From NCBI GenBank assembly GCA_016699425.1, contig CP064975.1, forward strand, positions 987,957 through 1,051,956: a stretch of DNA of 64,000 nt. Direction: 5' to 3'. Within the stretch, counting starts at the first letter, position 1. Each line of letters opens with the position of its first letter. Source of the stretch: Candidatus Moraniibacteriota bacterium (GTDB lineage: Bacteria > Patescibacteriota > Minisyncoccia > Moranbacterales > UBA1568). The notes under the pieces are model-generated. The model did not search any database and was not told where the DNA came from. It saw nothing but the letters and a program-made list of their open reading frames with translations. The position numbers and the translations under genes were made by a program. Of the stretch, positions 4,155 to 55,164 are shown one piece after another.

Positions 4155-7040
4155 TTAGCGCGACTGACGATTCCGAGATATAGCTGCTTCTGGTACATTG
4201 GGGATGACCGCAAACACGACTCCCGAAGCAAAAAGGATGAGAGCAACAGAGAAGAACACCTTCAGCGAAAAGAGTACCGATCCAGGGAGATAGCTTGCGA
4301 TGAGTGCATAGTACTTCTTCACACCCGTTTGAGTAATATTCAGTATCTCCGGCTGTTCGACTTGGGTACTGCCGCCAAAATAGCTTTCTGTCGTATCGAG
4401 TGAAGAAAGTCCCCAAATATCCTCCATCGCTTGACGAGTGAGCGTACTGGGTCGATAGACGGCGGTCAGAGAAACATTATAGACCGCTTGTCCAATCTTG
4501 TTCGCTGAGAACGCAATCGTATTCGTCGTCCCATCACCATATGGTACACCATCGACACTCCAGGAACGTTCGACTTGTGGCGGAGGAATGTTTGCGAGGA
4601 AATCAGGAGTGAAGAGTGCCCGAACCGGGACCGTACTCCCCGCCATTGTCTCCAGCGTTTCCTTGCTATATTCGGTGTAAGCGCCACCGTCCGTGTCCAG
4701 GTATTGACCAAGTGTCTTGGGCCAGACGCTGCCCATGTCATTCGATACGATACTCACTGATGGCTGGACTATCCGGAAAGTCCGAGAGATGGTCACGGTT
4801 CGTTCCGTCGAGCCGGCCGTGCTCGCCTGGTTCGCTGTGACGGTGATATTGAATGTATCGCCGACATTCCCAATCACCGGGAAGAAGTTGATGTTCCCTT
4901 GACGATCATCGAAGCAACTCGTGGCGGATACCCGCGCATTACAGATGAGCGGCTGACCATTGATGGTCCAATTGTAATTCGAGAGTCCAGCCCCCGGCAC
5001 TTCCAGCCCGATAATCTCATTCTTGATAACACGACAGAGTTTGCCATCCAAACGAGAGAGGGCTTGCTGTTCGGGCGGATCTGCCGGATTCACGATGCCC
5101 GAGCAAATCTCGTTGGCCGCATTGATCGAGACACGGGCCGGATCGCCAGCTGCCGTCACCGTATGGGCGAGGATGCGATCCTGGCTCGCATTGAACTTCA
5201 CAATGACGTCGCTCCGTCCCCGGCGAGTCGTTCCAGTCCCACTAAAATTTTCGGCAGCATCCACGCGGAAGCGCAGATAGCCGATATCGTTCAGGAGATA
5301 GTTCGTGAAAGGACGACCGTTGAACGTATCTGTTCTCTGCATATTCAAGTCGAGCTGCACCTTATTGACACCATTGCCCCGGACCTGGGACAAGAGCCGA
5401 CGACCCGGGAGGTTGTTCAGCGAACTCGTGATATTCACCCAACCAGCTGCTGGATTGGCTGTCCCGTCTGGCGAGAGCTCAACCCGCCAATCATAGTACA
5501 CCTGTTGTATTCCGCGGGCCGAGTTGTCGATGGTGGCCACGGCATTTAATTGGTCACCGTCACCCCGAGTCGTGACATCATTGAGTGGATCCTCGGGTGA
5601 AGCCGTGACTGAGAGATTAAGATTCGTTGATTGACCACCTTCAGCCGGATCGACCAGGTTCCAGCGAGCACACCAGCGCAGATCATGCGCAATAGTTGGG
5701 ATAACTACTTCATAACCAGCAATATTCCGTGTATATGACCCAGTATTGCCGTTATTCGGACAATTATTCTTCGACCAGGCCCACATGATCATATTGGATG
5801 AGTCCCGATACTTGGTCGCGTTCATCGAAGTCCCTTCGACCACCACTCCCACCTTATCGCCCGGCTGATAATTCCAAATAAAGGTGTCCCGGCCGAGCCC
5901 GACTACATTGGCCTCATCTTTATTCCCATTATCAGCTGTGTCTGGATCAGCAGGATTGGTCCGCCAGAACTGTTCTTCGGCAGCGCCGTAGGTGCCGTCC
6001 CCGGCCGTAAAACCTGGGGCCTGGGGGAATATGTGCCGACAAATTGGATTTGCATTGCTTCGGCCGACGCCGCCAGGCCGTGAACAGTACGTTAGACCGA
6101 TACTACAGAATGTCGCCGTGGCGGGATTCGAAACGCAGCATGGTGTTCCGACATTGCAGGCCGGGCTGCCAGACTGGGTACAATACGGCAGGCCCGAGAC
6201 ATAGTCATTCGCTTCGTCGAGATTGAAAGTCTCACCTTCTGCGGTCGCCGTCCCACCGGTCGCTGTTCCGCCCCCGGCACCACTCCCATCACTCGACGAG
6301 CTCGCCGTCCCACCGGTCGCACTGAGTTCCAGTATGCCCGGCGTGACATTGGCGCTCCCCACCATACAAATTGGTTGAGTGCCAGCTGGGCAGCCCCAAT
6401 CAACCTCTCCGACATCGGCATCGACGATCTCGTAATTCTCACCACTAGTATTGTCATGATAGTAGCAGTGATTCGGGACATTGACCCGGTTATCCCCTCC
6501 GAAACGGGCAAAGTAACCATCGTTATCAGTATCCACTCCATAATTCACGTTGGCCAAGTCAAGGTCATTGGAAGCGATTATCCGGTGCGCCTCGATCATG
6601 TAGTCTTCCTCGTCCGCCCAGTTGTCACCATTCAGATCGCAGCGGGCAATATTGAGGTTGCCTTCACATCCCGCCCGCATAAGGAACCACGTGAAGTAAA
6701 GATTACTCGCCTCACTCATAAAACCAGATGGAAAAGCACGGGCGGTAAGTTTTTCCCCCGGCTTCGGGTCCGAGGGTGAGAAGAAGAGTGAAACCTCCGG
6801 TGTTATTTTCTTGGCGTTAGCGACATTCATCGTTTCACCCTGCTCCTGGACGGCACCAGTGTTTACATGATAGCGTCTCTCAATATCCGCTGCCGCTTCA
6901 GAAGGGGAAGGTATCTTGATACTCGGCGATCCCCCAAAGAGCCCGGCTGAGGCAGGCAAGACAGAAACAATAAACAGCTCCAAACTCATCAAGAGACGGG
7001 CGAGCTGCAGGATCTTTTTGTGTTTTCTGAAACTCAACAT
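4155..7040 (-). CDS. Large secreted/cell-surface protein (961 aa); N-terminal signal peptide, Gly/Thr/Asn/Cys-rich ectodomain, C-terminal transmembrane anchor
   Basis: N-terminus MLSFRKHKKILQLARLLMSLELFIVSVLPASAG. Low-complexity TGGTASSSSDGSGAGGGTATGGTATAEGE stretch with multiple Cys. C-terminal hydrophobic segment followed by basic residues. Last gene of the T4SS-like operon. Confidence 0.7.
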   Translation of the reverse strand: MLSFRKHKKILQLARLLMSLELFIVSVLPASAGLFGGSPSIKIPSPSEAAADIERRYHVNTGAVQEQGETMNVANAKKITPEVSLFFSPSDPKPGEKLTARAFPSGFMSEASNLYFTWFLMRAGCEGNLNIARCDLNGDNWADEEDYMIEAHRIIASNDLDLANVNYGVDTDNDGYFARFGGDNRVNVPNHCYYHDNTSGENYEIVDADVGEVDWGCPAGTQPICMVGSANVTPGILELSATGGTASSSSDGSGAGGGTATGGTATAEGETFNLDEANDYVSGLPYCTQSGSPACNVGTPCCVSNPATATFCSIGLTYCSRPGGVGRSNANPICRHIFPQAPGFTAGDGTYGAAEEQFWRTNPADPDTADNGNKDEANVVGLGRDTFIWNYQPGDKVGVVVEGTSMNATKYRDSSNMIMWAWSKNNCPNNGNTGSYTRNIAGYEVVIPTIAHDLRWCARWNLVDPAEGGQSTNLNLSVTASPEDPLNDVTTRGDGDQLNAVATIDNSARGIQQVYYDWRVELSPDGTANPAAGWVNITSSLNNLPGRRLLSQVRGNGVNKVQLDLNMQRTDTFNGRPFTNYLLNDIGYLRFRVDAAENFSGTGTTRRGRSDVIVKFNASQDRILAHTVTAAGDPARVSINAANEICSGIVNPADPPEQQALSRLDGKLCRVIKNEIIGLEVPGAGLSNYNWTINGQPLICNARVSATSCFDDRQGNINFFPVIGNVGDTFNITVTANQASTAGSTERTVTISRTFRIVQPSVSIVSNDMGSVWPKTLGQYLDTDGGAYTEYSKETLETMAGSTVPVRALFTPDFLANIPPPQVERSWSVDGVPYGDGTTNTIAFSANKIGQAVYNVSLTAVYRPSTLTRQAMEDIWGLSSLDTTESYFGGSTQVEQPEILNITQTGVKKYYALIASYLPGSVLFSLKVFFSVALILFASGVVFAVIPNVPEAAISRNRQSR

Positions 7041-7043
7041 ATT

Positions 7044-7724
7044 TCAGCGAAGGATGAGCACCATGACATCGGTCAGAAACAGGAAAAACCACGATGCGCC
7101 ATAACTGTACCAGAGAGATCGAGACTGATAGGCGATGAGTCCGGCAAACGGAGCAAAAATAAGCGATGGGATGGTCGAGGCGTTGATGTCATCGCTGGCA
7201 TAGAACAGGAAACCGATGAGTGCCGCCTGAACAACGACCGACCAAATCCCCCACCTCCGGAGCCACAATAACATTATAAACCCTCGAAAGAATACCTCAA
7301 AGAGCAGCACGATGAATCCATTCAGGAATACCTCGTACAGAACAAAAAAGAGGAATTGCTCCTGGACTACCACCGGGAGCTGATAGTCTTGGAGAAGCGG
7401 AGTGAAATTCCACAAGACAAATAGTGCAGCTAATGCGGCAATGAGCGCCAAAACACTTCCCCCGATGCCGGCCCAGACATTCCCTTTTTGGAAGCCAAGT
7501 GCTGACAGCGGACGACCGAGCAGTACCTTACAGTACGCGAGCGGCATGATGAGAAAAATACCGATCGCTGCAATGATACTTTGAAGCATCGGACTGATAC
7601 GATCATCCCCGCCGAGAAACCACAGAACGAGTAACGAACCAGTGACGACCGTCATCGTTCCGAGGAATTCCTTGTGCCGAGCAACTACCTGTATCCATCG
7701 TTCCATAAAAACTGGAAAGCTCAA
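7044..7724 (-). CDS. CPBP-family-like polytopic membrane protein (degenerate protease motifs)
   Basis: Multi-TM ORF containing the FEVFFRGF motif (ExxxR-like). Its stop is 3 nt from the start of the next gene. Confidence 0.45.
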   Translation of the reverse strand: MSFPVFMERWIQVVARHKEFLGTMTVVTGSLLVLWFLGGDDRISPMLQSIIAAIGIFLIMPLAYCKVLLGRPLSALGFQKGNVWAGIGGSVLALIAALAALFVLWNFTPLLQDYQLPVVVQEQFLFFVLYEVFLNGFIVLLFEVFFRGFIMLLWLRRWGIWSVVVQAALIGFLFYASDDINASTIPSLIFAPFAGLIAYQSRSLWYSYGASWFFLFLTDVMVLILR

Positions 7725-7894
7725 ACCAAATCAAATTAATTGGTTACCGGATCAAATCCGGGAGAACCTGAATTTCTGCCCTCAAAAAATGACCACGGAG
7801 TCTCGGTGCTGTCGCTCATTCCGTATTAGAATGGTTCATCTTTACTTATTATACACTCTCACAGACGCGCCGATCATCTCATGCTTTTTTTCCT

Positions 7895-8800
7895 TTACGC
7901 TGCCCGGCGCATCACAGCATCGTTAGCAGCCGCACGCTGCCTTCCCCTCTCATAGAGTTTTCCTCCTTCTTTTGACATTTGTCTCCCAGCAGCACGTGCG
8001 ACCTCCTGCTCACCTAATTTTGTAGCTATCATGCCCGCTTTCCCGAGTCTGGTTACTTCTCCCACACCTGTCATATCAGCCGCCATAAACGCCGCTCCTG
8101 TCGCGCCATGCCTCACTCGATCAGTCCCAGAAAGTCTTCTACCATCAAGCCGTTTTCCCGTTACTGACTCACCGACCATCTTTGCCGATCCAACCACCGG
8201 CACCCAATCAGCACCTCTCGAAAGGCGGGTCATTCTCGGGTTTTGTGCGACGTCCCCTTGAGCAGAGAGCGTTTCCGCTTCCGTAGACGCGTCAGCCGAA
8301 GCATTTGAGGAAGCCGTCTCCTGGGCGGCTCTACTCTGAACTAACGCGCGTTGTCGCGCCACGCCACGGAGATCACCCGCCATCTTAGGAGTGGCTCGAT
8401 CGAGTGAGTCTAACACCCCTTTGGATTTATCAGCATCCTTCTTTGCTACATGGTACGCATATAGGACACACACCGTTTGGAACGGGATAAGATTTATAAA
8501 AGGGATGAAGTCGAGCAATGAAAGGAAGAAGACGACTAAACGGACCTTCCATTTCCCTCGCCCCCACATGAAGATGAATAGGTACACTGAAATGAAGAAC
8601 CCGAAGACGAGACCGATGAATGGGATGAAATCAAAGATACCATCTTTGGCAAGTGCAAAAGCCAGCGGCATAAGAAACACGGAGAGGTCTCCCTCTTTGA
8701 CCCTTCTCCGGTGCTCAAGAGCAAGGTGTGTCGCGCTCTTCAACTGCTTCCATTTGCTCTGCTGAAGCTGGTCGAGCTCGAGATCAAAATCCTCATCCAT
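7895..8800 (-). CDS. Hypothetical membrane protein (301 aa), T4SS-cluster associated
   Basis: ORF with two to three hydrophobic segments and a charged Ala/Gly/Arg-rich C-terminal tail. Lies 5 nt downstream of the virB4-like gene. Confidence 0.55.
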   Translation of the reverse strand: MDEDFDLELDQLQQSKWKQLKSATHLALEHRRRVKEGDLSVFLMPLAFALAKDGIFDFIPFIGLVFGFFISVYLFIFMWGRGKWKVRLVVFFLSLLDFIPFINLIPFQTVCVLYAYHVAKKDADKSKGVLDSLDRATPKMAGDLRGVARQRALVQSRAAQETASSNASADASTEAETLSAQGDVAQNPRMTRLSRGADWVPVVGSAKMVGESVTGKRLDGRRLSGTDRVRHGATGAAFMAADMTGVGEVTRLGKAGMIATKLGEQEVARAAGRQMSKEGGKLYERGRQRAAANDAVMRRAA

Positions 8801-8805
8801 AGAAC

Positions 8806-11142
8806 CTAAGGATTGTTGGCGTCAAATTCCCGCTTCGCCTCTTCAATTTCCAGGAGCTGGCGCGGGTCAGAAGTGATGATCTGGTCCTCGCTATATGAAG
8901 CGATAACCTTGATCGCCGCGTGCTTCGTCCCAGCGAAGAAGATTCCTTCGCCGACATTCGACTCGAGCAAGAGGAACTTCTCGTGGTCCGTCAGGTAAAA
9001 CGTCTCCGTGATGAAATCAATGGAAGCCGGCGACTGACGGAGGAGGAGCTGCATGGACGAGTTCGTGATAATCGGCTTGCCGTAGCGCGAAGACATGAAG
9101 TCAGAGATGTCCTGTGTGATCGTCGTGAGGCCCGTGTAGTACTTGCGGCAGCGCTTGGCGATACCAAAAAGGAATGAGGCCGCGTCTTCGTTTTGCATCA
9201 TGATCCACGCTTCATCGACGACAATGAGACGCTGGCGAAGCTTCGAGCGGATATCGTTCCAAATGTACTGAAGGATGATATACATGGCGATCGGCCGAAG
9301 CTCTTCCTCCAGGTCGCGGATATTGAACACCACAAGCTGATTGTTGGTGTCGATATTCGTCTGCTCATTGAGGAACCCCGAAAAAATCCCTTCCGTATAC
9401 CGCTGGAGACGTGCCGCGATCAAATCCGCCCCTTCCATATTCTTCAGGACCGCGTACAAGTCTGACATAGTCGGAAAGGAATTGGCCGTCAGTGACTCGT
9501 AATTCGAATCTTCGTGAATGTCACGAATGGCATAGGCTTCTCGGATCGCCTGATCCAGGATAGAGTCCTCTTCGGCCGACAGAGTGCCGAGCATAAGGTG
9601 AAGGAGACCAATGAGGTTGGCGATAGCGTTCCGGAACACGCCGTCCGACTCATCGTCAGCGCCCACCTTCGGCATATCAAACGGATTGAGGTGGATATCC
9701 GAATTCAGCGAAATCTTCAGGAATGCCCCGCCAACTGTCTCGCAGAGATGCTTGTACTCATTTTCAGGGTCGATGATGATGACGCTCGACTCGAACATGA
9801 GCGCCCGCAAGACTTCAAGCTTCACCGTATAACTCTTTCCAGCACCGGACTTCGCAAACACCACCATATTTGCGTTTTCCATCTTGAACCGGTCAAAGAG
9901 GATGAGCGAGTTGTTATGACGGTTGATGCCATAGAGGATTCCTTCGTTCGAAGAGAGATCGGAGGAAACAAAGGGGAAAGTCGTCGACAAAGGCTCAGTG
10001 TTCAGGTTGTTGGCGACATCCAAGGCATCATTCGCGAGCGGACGCGTCGATGCGAAACCCGCATCCATTCGGAGTACGGCCGGTTTAGTATAGACGAGCT
10101 GCGCCTCGAGCATCGCCTCGACAGACTGTTCTTTCTGTGAGAGATCCTTTTCGTCTGCTCCGTATATCATCATGTACAGTCCGAAACGGAAGAACTTCTC
10201 TGTCCCTTGCTGAAGCCGATCGCGCAGTTCTTCGATGTTCTGAAGGGCTGCCTCGAGCACGGGGTCACGGATTTTCCCTTCTTCGACTTCGATATTCATC
10301 TGCGACTGCACCTGGGTTGCTGATTTCCGGAGCTGTTTCAGGATCTCGGCCGTCTCGATCGGATGGATGAAGAGCGCCGTGTCCATCGGAAAGTCGAGAT
10401 TGATGATCGGGGAAAACCAATTGGTCGAGAGGAAACGTGGATACGCGATGACAAACAGCGCGCGTGCAACGACATCGCCGATTTGCATCGACGCCGGAGT
10501 GACCCGGATAGCCGGCGGAGCGATCAGGTCCTTGATTGTCGCCAGGCCCTTCTGGTACAACTGCTCCGTATCCAGTCCTTCATCCAGCTCCAGAATCCGT
10601 GGATTATTCTTGAAGAGTTTGCTGAAAATACCGGCTTTTTCTGACTGTGCACGCACAACACGTTCTTCGGGCGCAACATGTGACACGACTTCTTTGGCCC
10701 AGACCTCACGGTTTGCCTGTGGCTGAAGCAAGGCCTCATAGTCAGGCACCGCGACGGCCTCTCGCATCGGGGCCTCCCGGACGGGGGGGTCAGGCACGAT
10801 GTACGGTTCGAGCTCGGGTACAGCCACTGGCGGTGTGACCGGATCGGCCTCGACTATCACCAATGGTTCCACCTTCGGTCGTGGTTTCGGCGTCGGCTTT
10901 GGTTTCGGTCTTGCCTTCGGTAACGGTTTTGGTTGCGGCTCGGTAACCGTAACAGACGCTTTCGGTTGGCGGACCGGCGCGGCGACCACCTCTACTGGAG
11001 GCACTGGAGACGTCTTTACCACCGGCGCTGGCCGCGATGGCGGAACCGGAGCCTGGCCTGATCCAGGCGTCGTGATATTCATGGGATCTACCACGGATAC
11101 CTTCCTGATTGGCCGGTCAAAAATGATGAGTTCTCGTGCCAT
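8806..11142 (-). CDS. virB4: VirB4/TrbE-family type IV secretion ATPase (778 aa) with a roughly 150-aa Pro-rich N-terminal extension
   Basis: Walker A VFAKSGAGKSYT and Walker B RLIVVDEAWIMM. The middle region (AIRVTPASMQIGD...YPRFLSTNWFSPIINLDFPMDTALFIHP) is typical of Gram-positive-type VirB4 proteins. Confidence 0.85.
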   Translation of the reverse strand: MARELIIFDRPIRKVSVVDPMNITTPGSGQAPVPPSRPAPVVKTSPVPPVEVVAAPVRQPKASVTVTEPQPKPLPKARPKPKPTPKPRPKVEPLVIVEADPVTPPVAVPELEPYIVPDPPVREAPMREAVAVPDYEALLQPQANREVWAKEVVSHVAPEERVVRAQSEKAGIFSKLFKNNPRILELDEGLDTEQLYQKGLATIKDLIAPPAIRVTPASMQIGDVVARALFVIAYPRFLSTNWFSPIINLDFPMDTALFIHPIETAEILKQLRKSATQVQSQMNIEVEEGKIRDPVLEAALQNIEELRDRLQQGTEKFFRFGLYMMIYGADEKDLSQKEQSVEAMLEAQLVYTKPAVLRMDAGFASTRPLANDALDVANNLNTEPLSTTFPFVSSDLSSNEGILYGINRHNNSLILFDRFKMENANMVVFAKSGAGKSYTVKLEVLRALMFESSVIIIDPENEYKHLCETVGGAFLKISLNSDIHLNPFDMPKVGADDESDGVFRNAIANLIGLLHLMLGTLSAEEDSILDQAIREAYAIRDIHEDSNYESLTANSFPTMSDLYAVLKNMEGADLIAARLQRYTEGIFSGFLNEQTNIDTNNQLVVFNIRDLEEELRPIAMYIILQYIWNDIRSKLRQRLIVVDEAWIMMQNEDAASFLFGIAKRCRKYYTGLTTITQDISDFMSSRYGKPIITNSSMQLLLRQSPASIDFITETFYLTDHEKFLLLESNVGEGIFFAGTKHAAIKVIASYSEDQIITSDPRQLLEIEEAKREFDANNP

Positions 11143-11144
11143 AC

Positions 11145-11822
11145 CTATGACTGAAGCTCAATGGCCTCGATATTCTTCACGATCGTTGAGGCAAAAAGCG
11201 ATGGGTTATAGCTGTTGTAGAGTAGTTCGATAAGCTCCTCCGTCTCGAGAACCGCCGCCCGGACACCCATCGGAGAGAGTCCTGCCACCACGTGCTCGAC
11301 GCGCTGCATGAGCTGGGTCCGGTAGGTGTAGAAGAGCTCCGTCTTCAAGCCGACCGTCTTTTTTTGATTGAAGATATCGCCCATCTTCTGAAAAAATCCG
11401 CCCTGGCTGTTCTCGACCGGTGAAAACGGCACCACGACATAGAAGAATTTCGACATGATGTTCGATATCTCCGTCAAATTCTTGATGAAACCTTGATACT
11501 CCCGCATTTGGAAACGCAAAAGCTCATTCATTTGCTGAGCTTCTTTCCCCTTGAGGAGTTCGATATACGGATCGATATTGAAACGCCGCGATTGCACCAC
11601 GATCTGCACAGGAAAATCGAGCGAGTTCAAAAAATTCTGGTATTGGGAGATGATCGCATCTTGTTCCTCGCTTGATTTCAAATCAAAATTGATGGATGAA
11701 ACAAGAAGCACCGCTCGAAGTGCCCCGGTCTTGAGGACGAGCACACCATCGCGAATTTCTTCGACATCGACATAGCGCTGTGTGCTAGCACTCCCTGACT
11801 TTTTCTTCGAAAGAAGTTCCAT
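11145..11822 (-). CDS. VirB4 N-terminal-domain-like protein (225 aa), encoded separately from the ATPase
   Basis: DGVLVLKTGALRAVLLVSSINFDLKSSEEQDAIISQYQNFLNSLDFPVQIVVQSRR matches the conserved start of conjugative VirB4-like ATPases. TAG stop 2 nt before the ATG of 8806..11142. Confidence 0.6.
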   Translation of the reverse strand: MELLSKKKSGSASTQRYVDVEEIRDGVLVLKTGALRAVLLVSSINFDLKSSEEQDAIISQYQNFLNSLDFPVQIVVQSRRFNIDPYIELLKGKEAQQMNELLRFQMREYQGFIKNLTEISNIMSKFFYVVVPFSPVENSQGGFFQKMGDIFNQKKTVGLKTELFYTYRTQLMQRVEHVVAGLSPMGVRAAVLETEELIELLYNSYNPSLFASTIVKNIEAIELQS

Positions 11823-11831
11823 AGATCGAGA

Positions 11832-12224
11832 CTAGTGGCTATCCATGATATTGGCGAGACGACGAAGCTCTTCGGAGGTAATACGTTTTTCCTTGGGTGC
11901 CTCCACGACGCGAGCTGTTTCAACAGGTGCCTGACGGATCCGCGCCGTCGGTCGCTCCCAGACAGCGATTTTGGGACGGAACAAGAATGAAAATCCGTGG
12001 AAGAGAAACACAATGAGCGGTACCCCTTGAGGCCGATAGAAGGCCAGGGCAACAAAGAGGAGAATGAGCGGTATGCCGATGACGAAGAATCCCGTGGTAC
12101 CGATAGTGTTGTAGAGCACGAGGAGGGTGATCATCATGCCGATCATCCACAAGAGCTGCCGCCAGGTCAACGGACCAGCGATCTTGTCCTCGACATCGAT
12201 GAATTGCGGGACACTGAACATCAT
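11832..12224 (-). CDS. PrgI/VirB3-like small membrane protein (130 aa)
   Basis: N-terminus FSVPQFIDVEDKIAGPLTWRQLLWMIGMMITLL followed by two TM helices, as in PrgI-family proteins found upstream of VirB4 in Gram-positive T4SS. Confidence 0.65.
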   Translation of the reverse strand: MMFSVPQFIDVEDKIAGPLTWRQLLWMIGMMITLLVLYNTIGTTGFFVIGIPLILLFVALAFYRPQGVPLIVFLFHGFSFLFRPKIAVWERPTARIRQAPVETARVVEAPKEKRITSEELRRLANIMDSH

Positions 12225-12294
12225 AACGCTTTTGTATTCGAGGATAGCCTGCTTTCCATTTCTGCCAACATGAAAAGAAGTCTCCGCCTCTTTA

Positions 12295-12332
12295 GTATAT
12301 CACTACACTAATGCATCGGTGTAGTGATATAC
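12295..12332. promoter_or_regulatory. Perfect 14-bp inverted repeat GTATATCACTACAC-n10-GTGTAGTGATATAC upstream of the prgI-like gene
   Basis: Seen directly. The spacer TAATGCATCG contains an ATGCAT palindrome. A related half-site AGTATACCACTACA occurs at 16187-16200, upstream of the virB6-like gene. Confidence 0.45.
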
Positions 12333-12348
12333 AATAGCTGTACGAGAT

Positions 12349-13818
12349 TTATATGTCTCCGTTCCCACCATTCCTCGCACGAAGCGGACGGATAGAGTAG
12401 GGACTTTTCGAAAGCGAGGCTTTCGGTTCACGCCGGATTCCCTGAGTCGGCTGTTGCATCTGGCGGAGCGCCTCATTTACGCCTGTTGGGGCCGTATCAA
12501 CTTCACGTTCCGCGGGCAGCACATGGCCGGTGGAGAAATGCAGAGTCTCGCCAGAGACATTTTTTTCTGGCGCCGCTGATTTTCCAAAGAGGGGTTTGAA
12601 TGTCGGTGCCGGTTGAGACTTCACAGCTAACGGGACGGTCGGGGTGGTCGGTTGGATATTCGGTGCTGCCACGGCCGGATTCGCCGGCAACCCGCGAGGG
12701 CGGATAGTTCGGTTCATCGGCTGAGTCTTCACTTGAGCCAATTCCATCGATGCATCATCGGTCCGCGGGAAGATAATCGTCTCATGGGTCGTATCGATCT
12801 CCAATGGGAAATCCTCCTCGACTGATTTCAGAATGAGATTGAGCCGCGCCCGGTCGTCATTGGAGAGGCGTTTGCAATTCACGGACTGGAAGAGGAAATT
12901 CCCCCGCTGAGCGGTCTCATGGAAGCCGATACCAATTTCCTCGCGATAGCTCCGCAGCCAATTGCCCAAGGACGGCCGCACCGGTTCCATCGACGTCTTT
13001 AGTTTGATCTTCTCATTCGTCAGCAATTGCTCCGACAGATGCCGATACTCACTCATCGCCTTGAGCAGCGGTAATCGGATCGTTTTTTGGGCGGGTGCTT
13101 GTTGGCGACCAGTACCTGCAGAAACTCCCTTCTGTTGAGAGTTACTCATAGATGAATACTTTGCTCTGAACTCATTTGGGTTTACTTCTCTTACCCCTTT
13201 CTGCTCAAGTTCAGATAGTTTCTCATACACTCCAGCGACATCATAGACTGTAGTAATGGGACGTGCAAACCATTGGTCATACACGCGTAATACTTCACGA
13301 AGTACCCCTTGCTGATTCTTACTCATAGAGACGATCTCCGGAACACGGGTAAAGAACATGTTCACTGCAGTCCCTTCGCGCTCCATCGATGGGAAGTCTT
13401 TATCGAATTTCTGGACCCAGTCGCGGACCGTTCTTTGTCCAATTTTTTGTTCATTGTGTAATAGAGCATCCCGAAAAGCATTTCGATCCCCTTCCTGATT
13501 ACCATAACCCAAGTACAGAAACCGGCTCTTGATCACCTCATCGATATCCACTTCACTCGTCAACAGATCAACAAATTGTCTTTCAATGATTGCCACTGCC
13601 TGATCTACCGGAAGACTTGGGAAAGCAATGAACAAGAGAGGGTCCTTCATCTGTGTCAACATCTCCTTCGATGATGCAGGTGCCTGTCCTGCCATCACGT
13701 CCCACTGACGCCAAGCGGAATATGCCAAGTTGTCATCATGTCGGGCGCACGCCTCTGAGACCTTCGCGGACCATTGTTTGAAGTCTGTTGGCGGGGTAGT
13801 TGGTGAACTCACAGTCAT
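12349..13818 (-). CDS. Hypothetical protein (489 aa), T4SS-cluster associated
   Basis: Long ORF within the operon. No TM segment and no known motif. Pro/Thr-rich C-terminus. Confidence 0.6.
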   Translation of the reverse strand: MTVSSPTTPPTDFKQWSAKVSEACARHDDNLAYSAWRQWDVMAGQAPASSKEMLTQMKDPLLFIAFPSLPVDQAVAIIERQFVDLLTSEVDIDEVIKSRFLYLGYGNQEGDRNAFRDALLHNEQKIGQRTVRDWVQKFDKDFPSMEREGTAVNMFFTRVPEIVSMSKNQQGVLREVLRVYDQWFARPITTVYDVAGVYEKLSELEQKGVREVNPNEFRAKYSSMSNSQQKGVSAGTGRQQAPAQKTIRLPLLKAMSEYRHLSEQLLTNEKIKLKTSMEPVRPSLGNWLRSYREEIGIGFHETAQRGNFLFQSVNCKRLSNDDRARLNLILKSVEEDFPLEIDTTHETIIFPRTDDASMELAQVKTQPMNRTIRPRGLPANPAVAAPNIQPTTPTVPLAVKSQPAPTFKPLFGKSAAPEKNVSGETLHFSTGHVLPAEREVDTAPTGVNEALRQMQQPTQGIRREPKASLSKSPYSIRPLRARNGGNGDI

Positions 13819-13882
13819 AACATGGGGACTATATTAAACGTTATGTGCAAGACGGGGGGGTACAATACTGTTCATTCGTTAA

Positions 13883-16144
13883 TTATATGAGTCGTGTGGG
13901 CATCGTGTGTCCAGATGGCAGTGTCGGTTTAACAGTTTTCTCAACGTACTCTCGGAACATTGGGTTTGTGTTATACGCGGCCTTAAAGTTCCTATAGTTT
14001 CCACTCGTGGCAGTATTCACTGCCCCCTCATAGGCATCCAGGATCGCACTCTGGACTACTGCATTCGTTCGAGATGCGCTACCCACATCATTATTATTTA
14101 TTTCCATAGCAACTGCTAATCCAGACGCATGCATATCACCATATTTTCGATTGCCTGAAGCTGGGTCAACAACCTGTGTAAAGAGACCCCGGGCATGCAG
14201 GACATCCTGCCGTGTTTGCGCTTTCATTTTCTTGAAATTCCCCGCAACAGTCCCGGCATGGTCAGATGTGCCTGTCCAGGTTCCCGTTGCAACATCTGGT
14301 TCATAGAAGTCCCCAAAAGCAATATCCCCTTTCATCTTCGCATTTTCACCGAAGTTATGCATGTGTTTCATAATTGCCTGTTCGTCCACGCCCACATCCT
14401 CCAGAATTTTTTTCATGGTGTCCTTATAGCTCTCAGTGATATCGACCAATCCGGTGACCGGATCAATACTTGCCGTACCCAACTCATGCGCGAAATCCGC
14501 TGCAACGTTATCCAGACCATTTATCCGAGACAGGAGCGTACTCGCTGCCAGCACTTTTGCTGAATTACGTTCCTCATAACCCTCTTTAAGCGCTCGTCGT
14601 ACTACATTTTCATTAACCTCCCCTCCTCCCTGTTCCTTGATCTCTGCTTCATAATGAGCTTTTTGTTTATTCTGCTCCAAGAACGCATAGTTGGTTGAAT
14701 CCGCGTGTGTAAACTTATTAACAATTGGGATGCTACTAAATGCTTTATTTAATTCATCGTGCATCCGCGCCTTTGCCATATCGATAGGAAGTTGGTCCTC
14801 ATGATGCTGAGCCTCACTACGCTGCTTGAAGGCGGATTTCAACACGGTCGGGCTCAAGTACTTCACCCATTTTTTATCAGATGCAGCGAGCTTCGTCTCA
14901 ATCTTCCTCCCAGCATATTTGGCCGTCCCAGCTGCGCCCTTCCCCACCAATCTCACTGGTGCCATCGCTGCGCCCTGCACCTTCTTCCGTGCCCAATGCG
15001 CCGCCCCATAGCCCATACCGACGACAGCTGCCGAGCCGGCGATGGCGAATTTGTTGGCCAGGCCGATGGTCGCCCAGATGAGAATGATCGGGATCGTATA
15101 GAAAATCACATTGGTGATGAGTGTCGATCCACTAGCGCTGACACTGGCATTGGTCGACACCTGGTCCACTGATCGCCAGACATTGGCCGTCTGGGTCGCC
15201 TCGAGAAATTTCAGCGAGACCACGAGCATGAGCGCGGCCGCCGGACCGAAAAAAGCATAGCTCCAGAACTTACTCCACCATTCCTGTCCGTATTTGTTGA
15301 ATCCTGGCAAGAGCGACCCCGCGAAGCCGATCGGCGAAAAAACGAGGAGGAGGGTGAGTGCGATGAGCCGAACGATGAGCATGACCGAGAGCACCGCGAG
15401 CGAAATACCGAAAAGGAAGGCGAAGATGATCGCTGCAAACGTCGGGATATAATCCGTCGTCAGTGCCGCCGCCGCCGTACCCGAAAACCCGAGCAGGTTG
15501 TTCATCGCGATCACCGCCCCCTGGCCACCCCCCGCACCGATGACGTCATTTATGAAGTAGTACATCGGCACATTGGCCACATCGATGAGAAAGCGCGTGA
15601 TAGGAAAACTGAAATTGATGAGGAGCGCCGTGAGGAGGATGTTCTTGAAGATATTACGGATATTGAAGCTATCTACCTGGAAGATGGTCGCGAAGGCCGA
15701 AAAGAGCAGAATGAAAATGAAGAACAAATTGAAGAAGTCCCGGATAAATTGCCAGAGCGTATAGACGGCGGGGAAATTCAGGATGCCGTTTGGACCAGAG
15801 ACATTGGCCGGATTGACCACCCAGACGAAAAGCGCAGCGGCCGGGGAAGCAATGATGAGGATGATCGCACTGCGAATCAGATTGAGTAACCACAGTGAAA
15901 AGTCCTTCAAACATCCGGTGATATTGCCTATATTGCATCCAGTGGACACATCTCCAGTGGCTATCCCTTGGCCTTCTTTCACACCCGCGTTAGTCGCCCC
16001 ACCCACCGTCGCAGCCTCGACCGGGGTCTGGATAGTCTGATTCGCATGCACCGATGCCGCACAACCAAGAACGCCTTGGAAGACGAGCACGGAAAGGAAT
16101 AGACTCGCAAAAATTTTCTGTGTGTTTTTCTTCACCCCACGCAT
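13883..16144 (-). CDS. VirB6/TrbL-like polytopic membrane protein (about 753 aa from the internal ATG; the ORF extends to a GTG at 16195)
   Basis: Signal peptide MRGVKKNTQKIFASLFLSVLVFQGVLGCAASVHA, then six or more TM helices rich in aromatic and Gly residues, then a long soluble C-terminal domain. Position and topology match VirB6-like subunits. Confidence 0.6.
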   Translation of the reverse strand: MRGVKKNTQKIFASLFLSVLVFQGVLGCAASVHANQTIQTPVEAATVGGATNAGVKEGQGIATGDVSTGCNIGNITGCLKDFSLWLLNLIRSAIILIIASPAAALFVWVVNPANVSGPNGILNFPAVYTLWQFIRDFFNLFFIFILLFSAFATIFQVDSFNIRNIFKNILLTALLINFSFPITRFLIDVANVPMYYFINDVIGAGGGQGAVIAMNNLLGFSGTAAAALTTDYIPTFAAIIFAFLFGISLAVLSVMLIVRLIALTLLLVFSPIGFAGSLLPGFNKYGQEWWSKFWSYAFFGPAAALMLVVSLKFLEATQTANVWRSVDQVSTNASVSASGSTLITNVIFYTIPIILIWATIGLANKFAIAGSAAVVGMGYGAAHWARKKVQGAAMAPVRLVGKGAAGTAKYAGRKIETKLAASDKKWVKYLSPTVLKSAFKQRSEAQHHEDQLPIDMAKARMHDELNKAFSSIPIVNKFTHADSTNYAFLEQNKQKAHYEAEIKEQGGGEVNENVVRRALKEGYEERNSAKVLAASTLLSRINGLDNVAADFAHELGTASIDPVTGLVDITESYKDTMKKILEDVGVDEQAIMKHMHNFGENAKMKGDIAFGDFYEPDVATGTWTGTSDHAGTVAGNFKKMKAQTRQDVLHARGLFTQVVDPASGNRKYGDMHASGLAVAMEINNNDVGSASRTNAVVQSAILDAYEGAVNTATSGNYRNFKAAYNTNPMFREYVEKTVKPTLPSGHTMPTRLI

Positions 16145-16241
16145 AGGTATGCCAAGAGTATGAACAGCTACCGAGATACAAAAATAGTATACCACTACAA
16201 AGGAACTAGTAACTAGTAGTTAGTCGCTGCACCCTCATTTT

Positions 16242-50952: not shown

Positions 50953-52029
50953 TTATGGGTCCGGATCAGGAGTTGAATTAAAATTCACGAGCGATTGCTG
51001 GACGCCCGTATATTTTCCAGCACTCGATGCACTCCCGCTCCACCCACCCAGCTGTTGATTCGAATTGCGCATAAATTGCGATCCCGGACCAAGCTGCCGT
51101 TGAAGGTCAGTTCGTGCTTCGTTAATCTTTGAATCTACCTTTCCCAGTTCTCGACTGATGTTCTGAGAAACCATTTCGAAGCCCTTTTGGTACATGTTAT
51201 TGAGCGCCTGATTAGCAAAGGCTCCAGCCGCAGCAGCAATTAATTCACCCCATTCAGTTGAATTTCCCACCAGTTTGAGAACTTCTGTTTGAGTTGTCTC
51301 AGTGACACCGGCAATAATGGACCCGGGTGATACAGTTTTCCCATTGATCTCCACCCCGGTAAAGCCCTTTCCGGCAATCGCCTTCGTCTTGGCGATTTCC
51401 TGCTGTTGATTGATTTTCTTCTGTGTTTCTTCCTTGATCATGAGACTCATTCCGAGCGGGTTATTGCAATCCACTGAAACCACAGCATTCAGTACCCGCC
51501 AGTCCCCTTCTCCGAGCGAGACCATCGCATTTGGCGTGTACTGATCAAGATTGAATTTGCAGCGGTCAGCAGCAAAGGCCGCGTTCACCTCAGCATTCAT
51601 GTAGTTCAAATAGCTCATGCCTAGCTGTTGCAGGCTGCCCCCCGCCACGACATAGTTGAGTGCAGAACTCTTTCCATCCGTTACCGTCGTAAGAAGATCG
51701 TTCATGTATATCATTCCTTCATCCAAAGCAATACCATAGATATATTCCTTGTAATCTGTAATAAAGGCTGCCTTTTTGGACGACCCGCCCGAAACGAGCT
51801 TATTCGCTGTATCGCGCGCCAGTCCAATTGCTACACGCTTGGCAATACCTTTAAGCAGGGCCAACAATTGCTCCCTTAGTGTTGTAATTGCCTGACCTAA
51901 TAGTTCAGCAGGAATTGCATCCCATGCATATGCAGGACGCGGCATAACACTTACAAAAACAACCACAGGTATCATTATTGATACGATTACTTTCCTTGAC
52001 CGATAGTAATGATTCATGGACGACAGCAT
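50953..52029 (-). CDS. Secreted hypothetical protein (358 aa)
   Basis: N-terminal signal/TM segment. Lower GC than the genome average. Confidence 0.55.
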   Translation of the reverse strand: MLSSMNHYYRSRKVIVSIMIPVVVFVSVMPRPAYAWDAIPAELLGQAITTLREQLLALLKGIAKRVAIGLARDTANKLVSGGSSKKAAFITDYKEYIYGIALDEGMIYMNDLLTTVTDGKSSALNYVVAGGSLQQLGMSYLNYMNAEVNAAFAADRCKFNLDQYTPNAMVSLGEGDWRVLNAVVSVDCNNPLGMSLMIKEETQKKINQQQEIAKTKAIAGKGFTGVEINGKTVSPGSIIAGVTETTQTEVLKLVGNSTEWGELIAAAAGAFANQALNNMYQKGFEMVSQNISRELGKVDSKINEARTDLQRQLGPGSQFMRNSNQQLGGWSGSASSAGKYTGVQQSLVNFNSTPDPDP

Positions 52030-52040
52030 ATACCTCTCCC

Positions 52041-53021
52041 CTATAAATCAAGTGATAACCCTTGGATGCCGTACTGGCTAAGCTTAGTCTGTGTTTCCTG
52101 CATAAAGCCCTGCAGAGAAACAACCACCCCAATAATTTTTGAAAATGCCATCATCTGTGCCAACGGGTCCTCGGGCGTCACAGAGCCCTGAATGCTCTGC
52201 TTTATATTCGAAATATAAGAAAGTAATTTAACAGCCTTCATATGCGTATCAACCATGCTTTCCGGAACATCTAGCTGATTGATCTCTTCAAGCGCATTCT
52301 TCGCTCGTCTTTCTGACTCATCGAGAAAACTAAAGTCTCCCGAAACCAGACTCGTCAGCATTGTATTGCTCGAGGTTGTGATGAAGTTTTGCAATTGCGC
52401 CTCATTCCGTACAGGAGTAGGGAGATTTGAAAGGAGGATATATGCTGAGAGAGTAAGATACTGAACCGTATCCTCTCTATTCTGCTCTTTCTCTTCTTCG
52501 TCAGTTAAGTTGTCAGAAAGTTTCTTAATTTTCAAAAACGAACTATCAATCTCAGGCAATACCACTTCTTCCTGACTCGTTGCCATCACATTATTGATAA
52601 CGGTGGAAAAGTCCTCGTTTGTAATTTCAGAACTATTTCCTTTCTCTTCGAGGAGAGCAGCAAATTCATTAGTAGCTTTTGTAGTAAGATTAGGCGTTTG
52701 TGTATCCGATACACCAACCGCCTCAATGGCTTCCTCCGGTATAACTCGGTCTCCAGGCGCTGGTTTCAGTGGATCAAACCCTCCTTCAATTTCGACACCA
52801 TCACTATACCCATCCCCATCTGTATCTGCGACATTCGGATCGGTTCCATAAATTTTCTCTTCTTCATTTGACAAACCATCTGTATCAACATCATCAAAAA
52901 CAACTGTATCAGTTGTTGATACTTCATCCGCCGCGACATACAACGCTGAACTCACGAGACACAAAAAAGCAAACACTAAAATACTCCAGCGAAGATTGGT
53001 TTTTGTTTGTGATACACCCAT
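52041..53021 (-). CDS. Secreted protein with calcium-binding thrombospondin-type-3-like Asp-rich repeats
   Basis: Signal peptide, then DDVDTDGLSNEEEKIYGTDPNVADTDGDGYSDGVEIEGGFDP. Confidence 0.6.
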   Translation of the reverse strand: MGVSQTKTNLRWSILVFAFLCLVSSALYVAADEVSTTDTVVFDDVDTDGLSNEEEKIYGTDPNVADTDGDGYSDGVEIEGGFDPLKPAPGDRVIPEEAIEAVGVSDTQTPNLTTKATNEFAALLEEKGNSSEITNEDFSTVINNVMATSQEEVVLPEIDSSFLKIKKLSDNLTDEEEKEQNREDTVQYLTLSAYILLSNLPTPVRNEAQLQNFITTSSNTMLTSLVSGDFSFLDESERRAKNALEEINQLDVPESMVDTHMKAVKLLSYISNIKQSIQGSVTPEDPLAQMMAFSKIIGVVVSLQGFMQETQTKLSQYGIQGLSLDL

Positions 53022-53130
53022 ACAGGATGAATTATATCACAATAGTAAATTTGCAACAGAGAAATTTTCATATCGTAATTCACTCATCAAACAACAACCT
53101 TTCCATAATTTGGATGAAACATGGCATAAA

Positions 53131-53146
53131 CCCCCCCCCCCCCCCC
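53131..53146. repeat. Homopolymeric C16 tract (G16 on the minus strand) about 110 bp upstream of the start of gene 52041..53021
   Basis: Counted directly: 16 consecutive C. Confidence 0.9.
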
Positions 53147-53413
53147 GCCAAACATGACTCATACCCAATACCCCTTAACCAGTGGACCGGATGTAAACCC
53201 CTGCAGGCTTCCACCTGCAACATCGACACGCTCTGCCGTTCTTGAGAGTAGCGCCCATTCTTCATTTCAAAGCCTTTCACTCTAAGTTATTGTTGGATAA
53301 CAAATATTAATAAATTTTGTTACTCTCGCTCGATGTCCCAATGACATCACTTATCCATCACACCCTCCTTGATACTCTAATTTTGGATTGTTCTAGAGAT
53401 AAGTGGGGGGTAT

Positions 53414-54751
53414 TTATGAATTTATAGATTCAGAATTGTTCAAAGCTACATTATGACTAACTATATTACATTTGTCAATAGTATAAATACTCCATGCTAA
53501 CATTGCTGCTATAAATGATCCTTGGTATATGTCCCAGGCATAGTGGTCAATTGACAATATAAGTATAAGGAAAATTGTAGGTATTTGAATATTATTCCAT
53601 GTTTCACGTGGAACTTTTCGAAAATATTTTCGTAAAATCATTAAAAGGAGAATTGTTGGTAAGATACCAAGCTCACTAAGAACAATAAATGGTACAAAAT
53701 GTATTGGTTCGTAATTCCACCATTCCAGAGGCATGTTGTCATAACTCAATCGGTAGGTACCGATTCCAGAGCCAAACAATGTTGGAGCATAATTTCCTAC
53801 TTGACTTATAGCCTGACTCAATCTGGTCTTAGTAGATACGGATATATCTATATACGATAGAAGTGTAAATGCCACAATCGAAGCAAGTAAAACTGTAGTG
53901 ACTATCACATGTTTCACGTGGAACATAGAAATAAGTTTTTTTTTGTACATGAACAGTATCATGAGCATAAGAAATATAATCATGAGTTTTGATTGAGTCA
54001 ACAATATTGACATGGTAGTAAATAGGACTATGGGATACAGAAATAGATGTTTCACGTGGAACAAATATCGGCGAAATAAGTATATAAAAATGAGTACAAA
54101 CATAGCATAGACTGCGAAAACATTAGGATGAGGAAATGTACCGTAACCACGTAATACTAGATGTCCAAATATATGTGCTTTCGCAACATTCAATGCACCA
54201 AGCGACAGAATTGATTCATTTAATGCTTTGACTCCAATAGATGATCCATGTATAACCTGGTAACCCGAGATAAACAACTGGAATAATGTACTGAAGGAAA
54301 ATATATATACAAGATCTATAATAAATTTCGTTCCACGTGAAACAAATTGATTTTGTATTAATACTATCGCTCCAAAAATAAGTGAAAAATGTAGCGCGCT
54401 ACTAATTGAGAGTCGTACATCAATTGAGGCAAAAATATTCATGGTTAAAAATATCAACAATAGTATCCATAAAATATTACGTTCCACGTGGAACTCATTT
54501 TTTACCTGATTAATAATAGATGTAACTATTGACTTTTCTTCTCTTTTCTTGTTTATAATGTGTATAAGAAGTGCAATAGCGAGAATAATCTCTCCAATAT
54601 ATATAGATATATCCATATATTCGCTGAAAGCCGCATGAAATCCACTCCGACTAGGATCAAGTATGATACGCCAAGAAAACGGAATTTGCCCGATATAGGC
54701 ATAAACCAATACTTGCTCAATATCTTTGAGTGAAACCGGGATAGTTTTCAT
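53414..54751 (-). CDS. O-antigen ligase/polymerase-like polytopic membrane protein (445 aa), about 33% GC, with five in-frame copies of a 14-bp palindrome
   Basis: Ten or more TM helices and a large periplasmic-type loop, similar in architecture to the Wzy_C/O-antigen ligase family. Strongly AT-rich relative to its flanks. Confidence 0.55.
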   Translation of the reverse strand: MKTIPVSLKDIEQVLVYAYIGQIPFSWRIILDPSRSGFHAAFSEYMDISIYIGEIILAIALLIHIINKKREEKSIVTSIINQVKNEFHVERNILWILLLIFLTMNIFASIDVRLSISSALHFSLIFGAIVLIQNQFVSRGTKFIIDLVYIFSFSTLFQLFISGYQVIHGSSIGVKALNESILSLGALNVAKAHIFGHLVLRGYGTFPHPNVFAVYAMFVLIFIYLFRRYLFHVKHLFLYPIVLFTTMSILLTQSKLMIIFLMLMILFMYKKKLISMFHVKHVIVTTVLLASIVAFTLLSYIDISVSTKTRLSQAISQVGNYAPTLFGSGIGTYRLSYDNMPLEWWNYEPIHFVPFIVLSELGILPTILLLMILRKYFRKVPRETWNNIQIPTIFLILILSIDHYAWDIYQGSFIAAMLAWSIYTIDKCNIVSHNVALNNSESINS

Positions 54752-54932: not shown

Positions 54933-55164
54933 ACCCCATTAAATTACGTCTCTTAGCTATTCAGGATTTTTACAGCCTCTTTACAGCCATTGAGGCTGGT
55001 ATTTTTAGATAATCAGAATTAATATATTCAGTTCAGTATGAAAAGTCCAACTACAAGCAAAATTATTGGATAATATCCTCACTTATCTACTAGTTATCCA
55101 CAGTTCCTCTGATACAATACGCTTATCTTGCCATCGTAGCGGTTTCCCAGTATAGTACACCTTC

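Follow-up and report, generated by a model that had tools for sequence, protein, structure and literature searches.

Homopolymeric tracts occupy promoter spacers in Neisseria meningitidis, where porA carries poly-G and both opc and fetA carry poly-C, and in Bordetella pertussis, where fim2 and fim3 carry poly-C. The poly(G) tract of Moraxella catarrhalis uspA1 lies in the 5' untranslated leader, and changes in its length alter the mRNA level in a graded manner. Simple repeats act as upstream rheostats in Helicobacter pylori sabA (poly-T by the -35), N. meningitidis nadA (TAAA, ~100 bp upstream) and Haemophilus influenzae hmw (7-bp repeats). Campylobacter jejuni and H. pylori possess tens of poly-G/C tracts per genome, most of them intragenic and located in accessory loci. 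Contingency tracts often sit upstream of secreted-protein operons, and a G/C run of around 16 nt is of a length known to be prone to slippage. The literature that we searched contained no report of homopolymer phase variation in a CPR bacterium, the nearest case being a Gracilibacterium with a coding repeat of 9-mer units (PMC6851277).

Here we describe a long G/C homopolymer in the chromosome CP064975, a circular metagenome-assembled genome (MAG) of 1,217,328 bp from activated sludge, which belongs to the Patescibacteria (order Moranbacterales, family UBA1568). The window, by which we mean the whole 64-kb stretch of DNA that was analysed, contains exactly 16 consecutive C residues on the plus strand at 53131-53146. 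All three genes around the tract are encoded on the minus strand, so that the run reads G16 in the sense direction; GC skew identifies this sense strand as the leading strand. Between the tract and the ATG of ORF 52041-53021 are 109 nt (53022-53130). No other homopolymer of at least 10 nt is present in the window, where the next longest runs for each base are C8, G7, A8 and T9. The tract is far above chance expectation: the number of C runs of at least 16 nt expected per window is 6e-5 for an iid model, 3e-5 for a first-order Markov model and 6e-6 by extrapolating the decay of the observed run lengths. Besides the tract, TRF detected no second multi-copy simple repeat in the 64 kb. With 16 uninterrupted residues, the run exceeds the minimum of ~8-9 G/C residues for high-frequency slippage, and because a run of ~16 nt is expected to slip, the population is probably heterogeneous in tract length. 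The reading that we favour, with a probability of about 0.5, is that the repeat is genuine and unstable, is specific to this lineage and has slight regulatory consequences or none. The features that bear on this assessment are collected in Table 1.

Table 1. Positions of the G16 tract and of the genes, promoter-like blocks and predicted ParB-binding sites around it
Feature	Position in window	Strand	Basis
G16 homopolymer (C16 on plus)	53131-53146	-	direct count, repeat scan, run expectation
Proximal promoter-like block: -35-like TTGCAA (53051-53056), N14, TRTG-extended -10 TGTGATATAAT (53031-53041)	53031-53056	-	14/14 upstream regions
Distal promoter-like element: TTGACA-N17-CATAAT, 11/12 to consensus	53450-53478	-	promoter scan; 11/13 species
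392-bp spacer, membrane-protein gene to TSP3 gene	53022-53413	-	alignments, Rfam, ORF and fold tests
326-aa protein: signal-like N-terminus, two bacterial TSP3 repeats, all-helical C-terminal domain	52041-53021	-	Pfam, AF2 model
358-aa protein: N-terminal hydrophobic segment, no family match	50953-52029	-	family search, synteny
445-aa polytopic membrane-protein gene, 33% GC, upstream of spacer, bears four predicted parS sites	53414-54751	-	ORF, family search, composition
Four predicted chromosomal parS (ParB-binding) sites	53600-53615, 53910-53925, 54048-54063, 54329-54344	.	match to TGTTNCACGTGAAACA

The gene downstream of the tract encodes QQR78488.1 (IPJ68_05435), which matches the Pfam family TSP3_bac (E 8.5e-13) through two repeats of the Asp-rich, calcium-binding type at residues ~43-87. 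An AF2 model of this protein (pLDDT 71) has an N-terminal hydrophobic helix at residues 7-37, which fits a signal peptide or an anchor, and a C-terminal helical domain for which no PDB fold match was found at E ≤0.001. The homologues number 636, nearly all being 320-340 aa long and, where labelled, from Moranbacteria; the family is widely conserved and single-copy, has many invariant columns in the homologue alignment and includes as the best match a protein of 74% identity. Across the Moranbacterales, the TSP3 gene thus belongs to the conserved, single-copy core and is syntenic; it is not a variable accessory antigen. Since the gene for the 358-aa protein starts 11 nt past the TSP3 stop, the two are probably co-transcribed. 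Neither the 358-aa nor the 445-aa protein has a significant match to a Pfam or NCBIfam family. Four other species have the same order of RbfA-DHH, tRNAs, membrane protein, spacer, TSP3 protein, ~350-aa protein, tRNA-Val, 294-aa protein and FtsH. The three-gene cluster at 50953-54751 (polytopic membrane protein, TSP3 protein and ~350-aa protein) is itself conserved across the Moranbacterales (L001-L013). A difference in the length of the membrane-protein gene between relatives L001/L002 and L003 was considered as a sign of phase variation and was discarded, as the DNA is identical and the gene calls differ.

The composition of this region is distinct, with a GC content of 33% in the membrane-protein gene and 42% in both the TSP3 gene and the spacer, as compared with 52% for the window. 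The same dip is seen in two of the four species with this gene order, L001 and L004, whose membrane-protein gene is 33-35% GC. As synteny and GC dip are shared with relatives, the low-GC 'island' is ancestral and does not represent an acquired or variable surface island; a foreign island was rejected because gene order and low GC are conserved in other species. A sequence-only reading of this DNA had placed a C16/G16 run ~110 bp upstream of a gene for a secreted protein with thrombospondin-type, Asp-rich calcium-binding repeats, within a low-GC island of surface-related genes. The position is borne out by the exact count and the 109-nt distance, and the nature of the protein by the TSP3_bac match and the hydrophobic N-terminal helix of the AF2 model. 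The low GC content (33-42%, against 52%) also stands. The region is not a mobile or variable surface island, as order and composition are conserved in other species.

An alignment of the regions upstream of the TSP3 gene from the window and 13 related species (14 sequences) contained just two conserved blocks, one proximal and one distal to the gene. The consensus of the proximal block, cTGTTGCAA-N10-TGTGATATA(A/C)T, is found right before the ATG, and its -10 is separated from the ATG by 6-10 nt in 13 of the 14 sequences (9 nt in the window). No Shine-Dalgarno sequence was seen before the TSP3 ATG, which, together with this short distance, implies a leaderless or near-leaderless TSP3 mRNA; the corresponding transcription start is predicted near 53022-53024. 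The distal element, a near-perfect match to a sigma-70-type promoter, lies within the final codons of the gene for the membrane protein and is aimed into the spacer. In 11 of 13 species it takes the form TTGACA-N16-18-nAnnnT, with (C/T)ATAAT as the -10, and lies 17-69 nt before the stop codon, where the protein tail is unconserved; equivalents occur in L004-L013 and L085, in which the spacer is 200-640 nt long and unconserved. Transcription from the distal element is predicted to start at ~53443 and may produce a long leader or an sRNA. We infer from these sequence patterns that both conserved blocks function as promoters. A perfect 8-bp inverted repeat, TTGTGATA / TATCACAA (53035-53042 and 53007-53014), brackets the proximal -10 and the first codons; it may act as an operator or may have arisen by coincidence from the constraints on promoter and coding sequence.

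Between these two blocks the spacer is devoid of detectable conservation, its interior showing no similarity between any pair of the 13 species. Rfam families were found neither in the window nor in nine relatives, and an RNA gene in the spacer was rejected on the basis of this result, a fold z-score of -1.1 and the lack of pairwise conservation. Searches for a conserved small peptide in the spacer found none. The possibility that the spacer is a gene remnant or a repeat from elsewhere was likewise dismissed, since blastn and tblastx comparisons with the window and the related loci recovered the promoter block alone. Either side of the tract is an imperfect direct repeat, AAACATGGCATAAACCC (53117-53133) and AAACATGACTCATACCC (53150-53166), whose copies are identical at 13 of 17 positions and lie 33 nt apart. 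This repeat might record a local duplication, with the run having grown from its ACCC end, or might have arisen by chance.

The G16 tract is situated in this unconserved interior, on the upstream side of the proximal -35-like hexamer and 74 nt away from it. Relative to the predicted proximal start the tract is at about -107 to -122, and relative to the predicted distal one at about +298 to +313. Thus, if the distal promoter is active, the tract would be transcribed at ~+300 of a long leader; no conserved element adjoins the tract in the relatives compared. The distances to the proximal -35 (74 nt) and to the distal element (~300 nt) exclude a change in promoter spacing. The proposal that the tract sits in the promoter and alters its spacing is consequently not upheld, as neither conserved block (53031-53056 and 53450-53478) spans it. 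A role as the spacer of some other -35/-10 pair was also rejected: a promoter scan gave no promoter across the tract, and the arrangement TTTGGC-G16-TTTATG, which is apparent by eye, is without the invariant -10 bases. Placement of the tract within an ORF or within an N-terminal extension of the TSP3 protein was discounted because all three minus-strand frames stop before the TSP3 ATG, and the ORFs that do cross the tract are all of ≤66 aa and unconserved. Frameshift switching is excluded, as no ORF or frame joins the tract to the TSP3 gene.

As in porA, opc, fetA, fim2 and fim3, a G/C homopolymer of more than 10 nt is found upstream of a surface-protein gene and is expected to slip; in those genes, however, the tract forms the -35/-10 spacer or abuts an activator site, whereas 74 nt separate the present tract from the -35-like hexamer downstream of it. 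The arrangement would resemble uspA1 if the distal promoter (53450-53478) is active, with G16 positioned ~110 nt ahead of the start codon as part of a long leader that is not translated, but the leader is a predicted one and a second conserved, apparently leaderless promoter downstream of the tract would bypass it. As in sabA, nadA and hmw, the core promoter is preceded by a simple repeat that could shift the phasing of upstream DNA. Those repeats act through identified upstream elements (UP-like DNA, IHF or NadR sites, a second promoter), whereas no upstream site is conserved here. Finally, the organism has in common with C. jejuni and H. pylori a small genome, dependence on a host and a G/C tract close to genes for surface structures. 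Unlike the repertoires of these species, there is a single tract in this 64-kb window and there are none in ~545 kb of related loci.

This last comparison draws on a set of 86 related loci (~545 kb), in which no run of G or C exceeds 8 nt and no TSP3 homologue is preceded by a tract. The absence of the tract from all 86 loci indicates that it is lineage-specific and not a conserved regulatory device of the operon. Exact-protein look-ups with the TSP3 protein, P0001 and the membrane protein returned no sequence from the same species, and the flank pattern AACATGGCATAAA-N4-34-GCCAAACATGACTC had zero matches in the JGI metagenomes. A scan of genome contigs yielded 80 loci, the best of them 74% identical, and the source genome was not one of these.

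An artefact of assembly or polishing, such that the organism has no long tract or one whose true length is substantially off 16, appears to us distinctly improbable. Nanopore errors shorten homopolymers and are not known to create them, and HiSeq X uses four-colour chemistry, so that the poly-G artefact of two-colour instruments should not apply to the Illumina data for this MAG. The genes around the tract are intact and free of frameshifts, and the flanks are syntenic with relatives and show no chimeric junction. Nor is the tract a mis-join, since both flanking genes have the ancestral order and orientation and the spacer, at 392 bp, is of a size seen in relatives, where it measures 203-641 bp. 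Concern arises instead from how the sequence was obtained. CP064975 corresponds to MAG EsbW_18-Q3-R4-48_MAXAC.278_cln (Singleton et al. 2021, PMC8012365, Supplementary Data 3), and was produced by CANU assembly of Nanopore reads, followed by Racon, two rounds of Medaka and a final Racon step with PCR-free HiSeq X reads (PMC8012365), at a coverage of just 9.8x Illumina and 18.4x Nanopore (PMC8012365 Supplementary Data 3). By arithmetic from this coverage, ~7 Illumina reads could span the tract with anchors, and PMC9262707 describes Nanopore reads of that period as giving wrong homopolymer sizes. The figure of 16 is therefore approximate and not secure, given a low-coverage Nanopore assembly with ~10x Illumina polishing; a long tract in the organism is credible, while the exact count is soft.

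For a genuine tract, we favour a course of events in which the poly(G:C) run arose in a fast-evolving, sequence-unconstrained spacer of a conserved chromosomal locus beside the parS cluster and in which units would be gained and lost by slipped-strand mispairing. Changes in length would most likely leave the TSP3 operon largely or wholly unaffected, and would at most have a graded effect via the long leader or the geometry of upstream DNA; the proximal promoter, being located downstream of the tract, would bypass it. An on/off antigen switch is unlikely. Both the hypermutability of the tract and its lack of a strong effect are what we infer for this locus. Set against neutrality is the absence of any other long G/C tract from the 64-kb window and the ~545 kb of related loci, which makes a neutral 16-mer improbable and means that its persistence may need selection; the tract is, in addition, upstream of a secreted-protein operon. 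A tentative alternative, on balance doubtful, is that the length of the G-tract tunes expression of the operon of the TSP3 and 358-aa proteins. If transcription begins at the distal promoter, the tract could act within a ~420-nt leader by way of RNA structure, RNA stability or premature termination; otherwise, tuning could arise from a change in the helical phase of upstream DNA relative to the proximal promoter. A tract that is well past the slippage threshold and exceptional against a background that avoids G/C runs is consistent with such a contingency element, as are a conserved distal promoter that would make it part of the transcribed leader and a product that is a secreted or surface protein. 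According to PMC8012365, moreover, CPR bacteria are thought to live as symbionts attached to surfaces, and this MAG has a relatively high total polymorphic rate of 0.0043 (PMC8012365 Supplementary Data 3). However, the tract is outside every conserved element, no relative has one at this locus, and the gene that would be tuned belongs to the conserved core and is not accessory. The conserved leaderless-type promoter downstream of the tract would be unaffected, no other simple repeat accompanies it in the window, and precedent for homopolymer phase variation in CPR bacteria was, as stated above, lacking from the literature searched. The boldest form of this alternative, namely that the tract is the first simple-repeat contingency element in a CPR bacterium, a hypermutable G-tract in the leader between two promoters that exerts heritable, reversible and graded control of a conserved calcium-binding surface-protein operon, is in our view unlikely. 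Runs of G15 or longer can form a three-tetrad quadruplex, a length that G16 exceeds, and so the tract could also be a structural element, either as an intramolecular G-quadruplex or paired with the C6 block at 53401-53406, and would then cause transcription or replication to pause or form a boundary beside the ParB/parS zone. The spacer begins with a C6+CATAAA segment whose complement, G6+TTTATG, is found at the tract (duplex of -29.3 kcal/mol), and the nearest parS site is ~450 bp away. Yet the complementarity is marginal, with 4.4% of shuffles as good, the whole-spacer fold is no better than shuffles, and relatives that share the parS cluster have no equivalent; we regard a structural role as very unlikely. 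The pairing segments are located on the minus strand within 53396-53417 (C6+CATAAA) and 53121-53146 (G6+TTTATG).

The chromosomal parS consensus is the 16-bp palindrome TGTTNCACGTGAAACA (PMC7022226), and two of the four sites match it at 16/16 positions and two at 15/16, where 0.04 sites would be expected. Inside the 445-aa gene these sites are read in three codon contexts (FHVKH twice, VPRET and VSRGT), and most close relatives (L001-L013) have 3-4 copies of a 14-mer core of parS in their orthologue of this gene. The occurrence of three codon contexts and the recurrence in orthologous genes point to a constraint at the level of DNA, and the predicted parS cluster, located in the lowest-GC gene of the region, is probably the centromere of the chromosome. 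We found no evidence of a functional link between G16 and the parS sites. The second-longest homopolymer of the window, a T9 run at 53936-53944 (A9 on the coding strand, encoding KKK), is inside the same membrane-protein gene between two parS sites.

Two further observations concern other parts of the window. A 10-nt repeat (TATCCACAGT-like, ~3 copies) is found at 55074-55105 between tRNA-Ala and tRNA-Arg and includes, at 55094, a perfect DnaA box, TTATCCACA. An oriC near the locus was considered and rejected, as there is one perfect DnaA box alone and no GC-skew turn in the window; because of the absence of this turn, 55074-55105 is probably not oriC. At the other end of the window, a TraG/VirB4-like P-loop ATPase (8806-11142) lies within the region 4155-16195 among very large ORFs without a Pfam match, of 961 aa (4155-7040), 489 aa (12349-13818) and 770 aa (13883-16195); from its gene content, this region may encode a type-IV-secretion-like or pilus-like apparatus.

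Slippage-based contingency regulation has so far been documented mainly in host-adapted pathogens. If, as is more likely, the tract is an unstable neutral repeat, it can serve as a strain marker and as a reminder to check homopolymer lengths at the level of reads in low-coverage long-read MAGs. The predicted parS sites and the two conserved promoter-like elements are annotation landmarks in a CPR genome. If instead the tract varies and tunes the operon, contingency regulation would be extended to the CPR/Patescibacteria and population heterogeneity would be generated in a 1.2-Mb symbiont genome. The conserved TSP3 operon would then also emerge as a candidate factor for interaction with the host, possibly for attachment to host cells, in these uncultured organisms.
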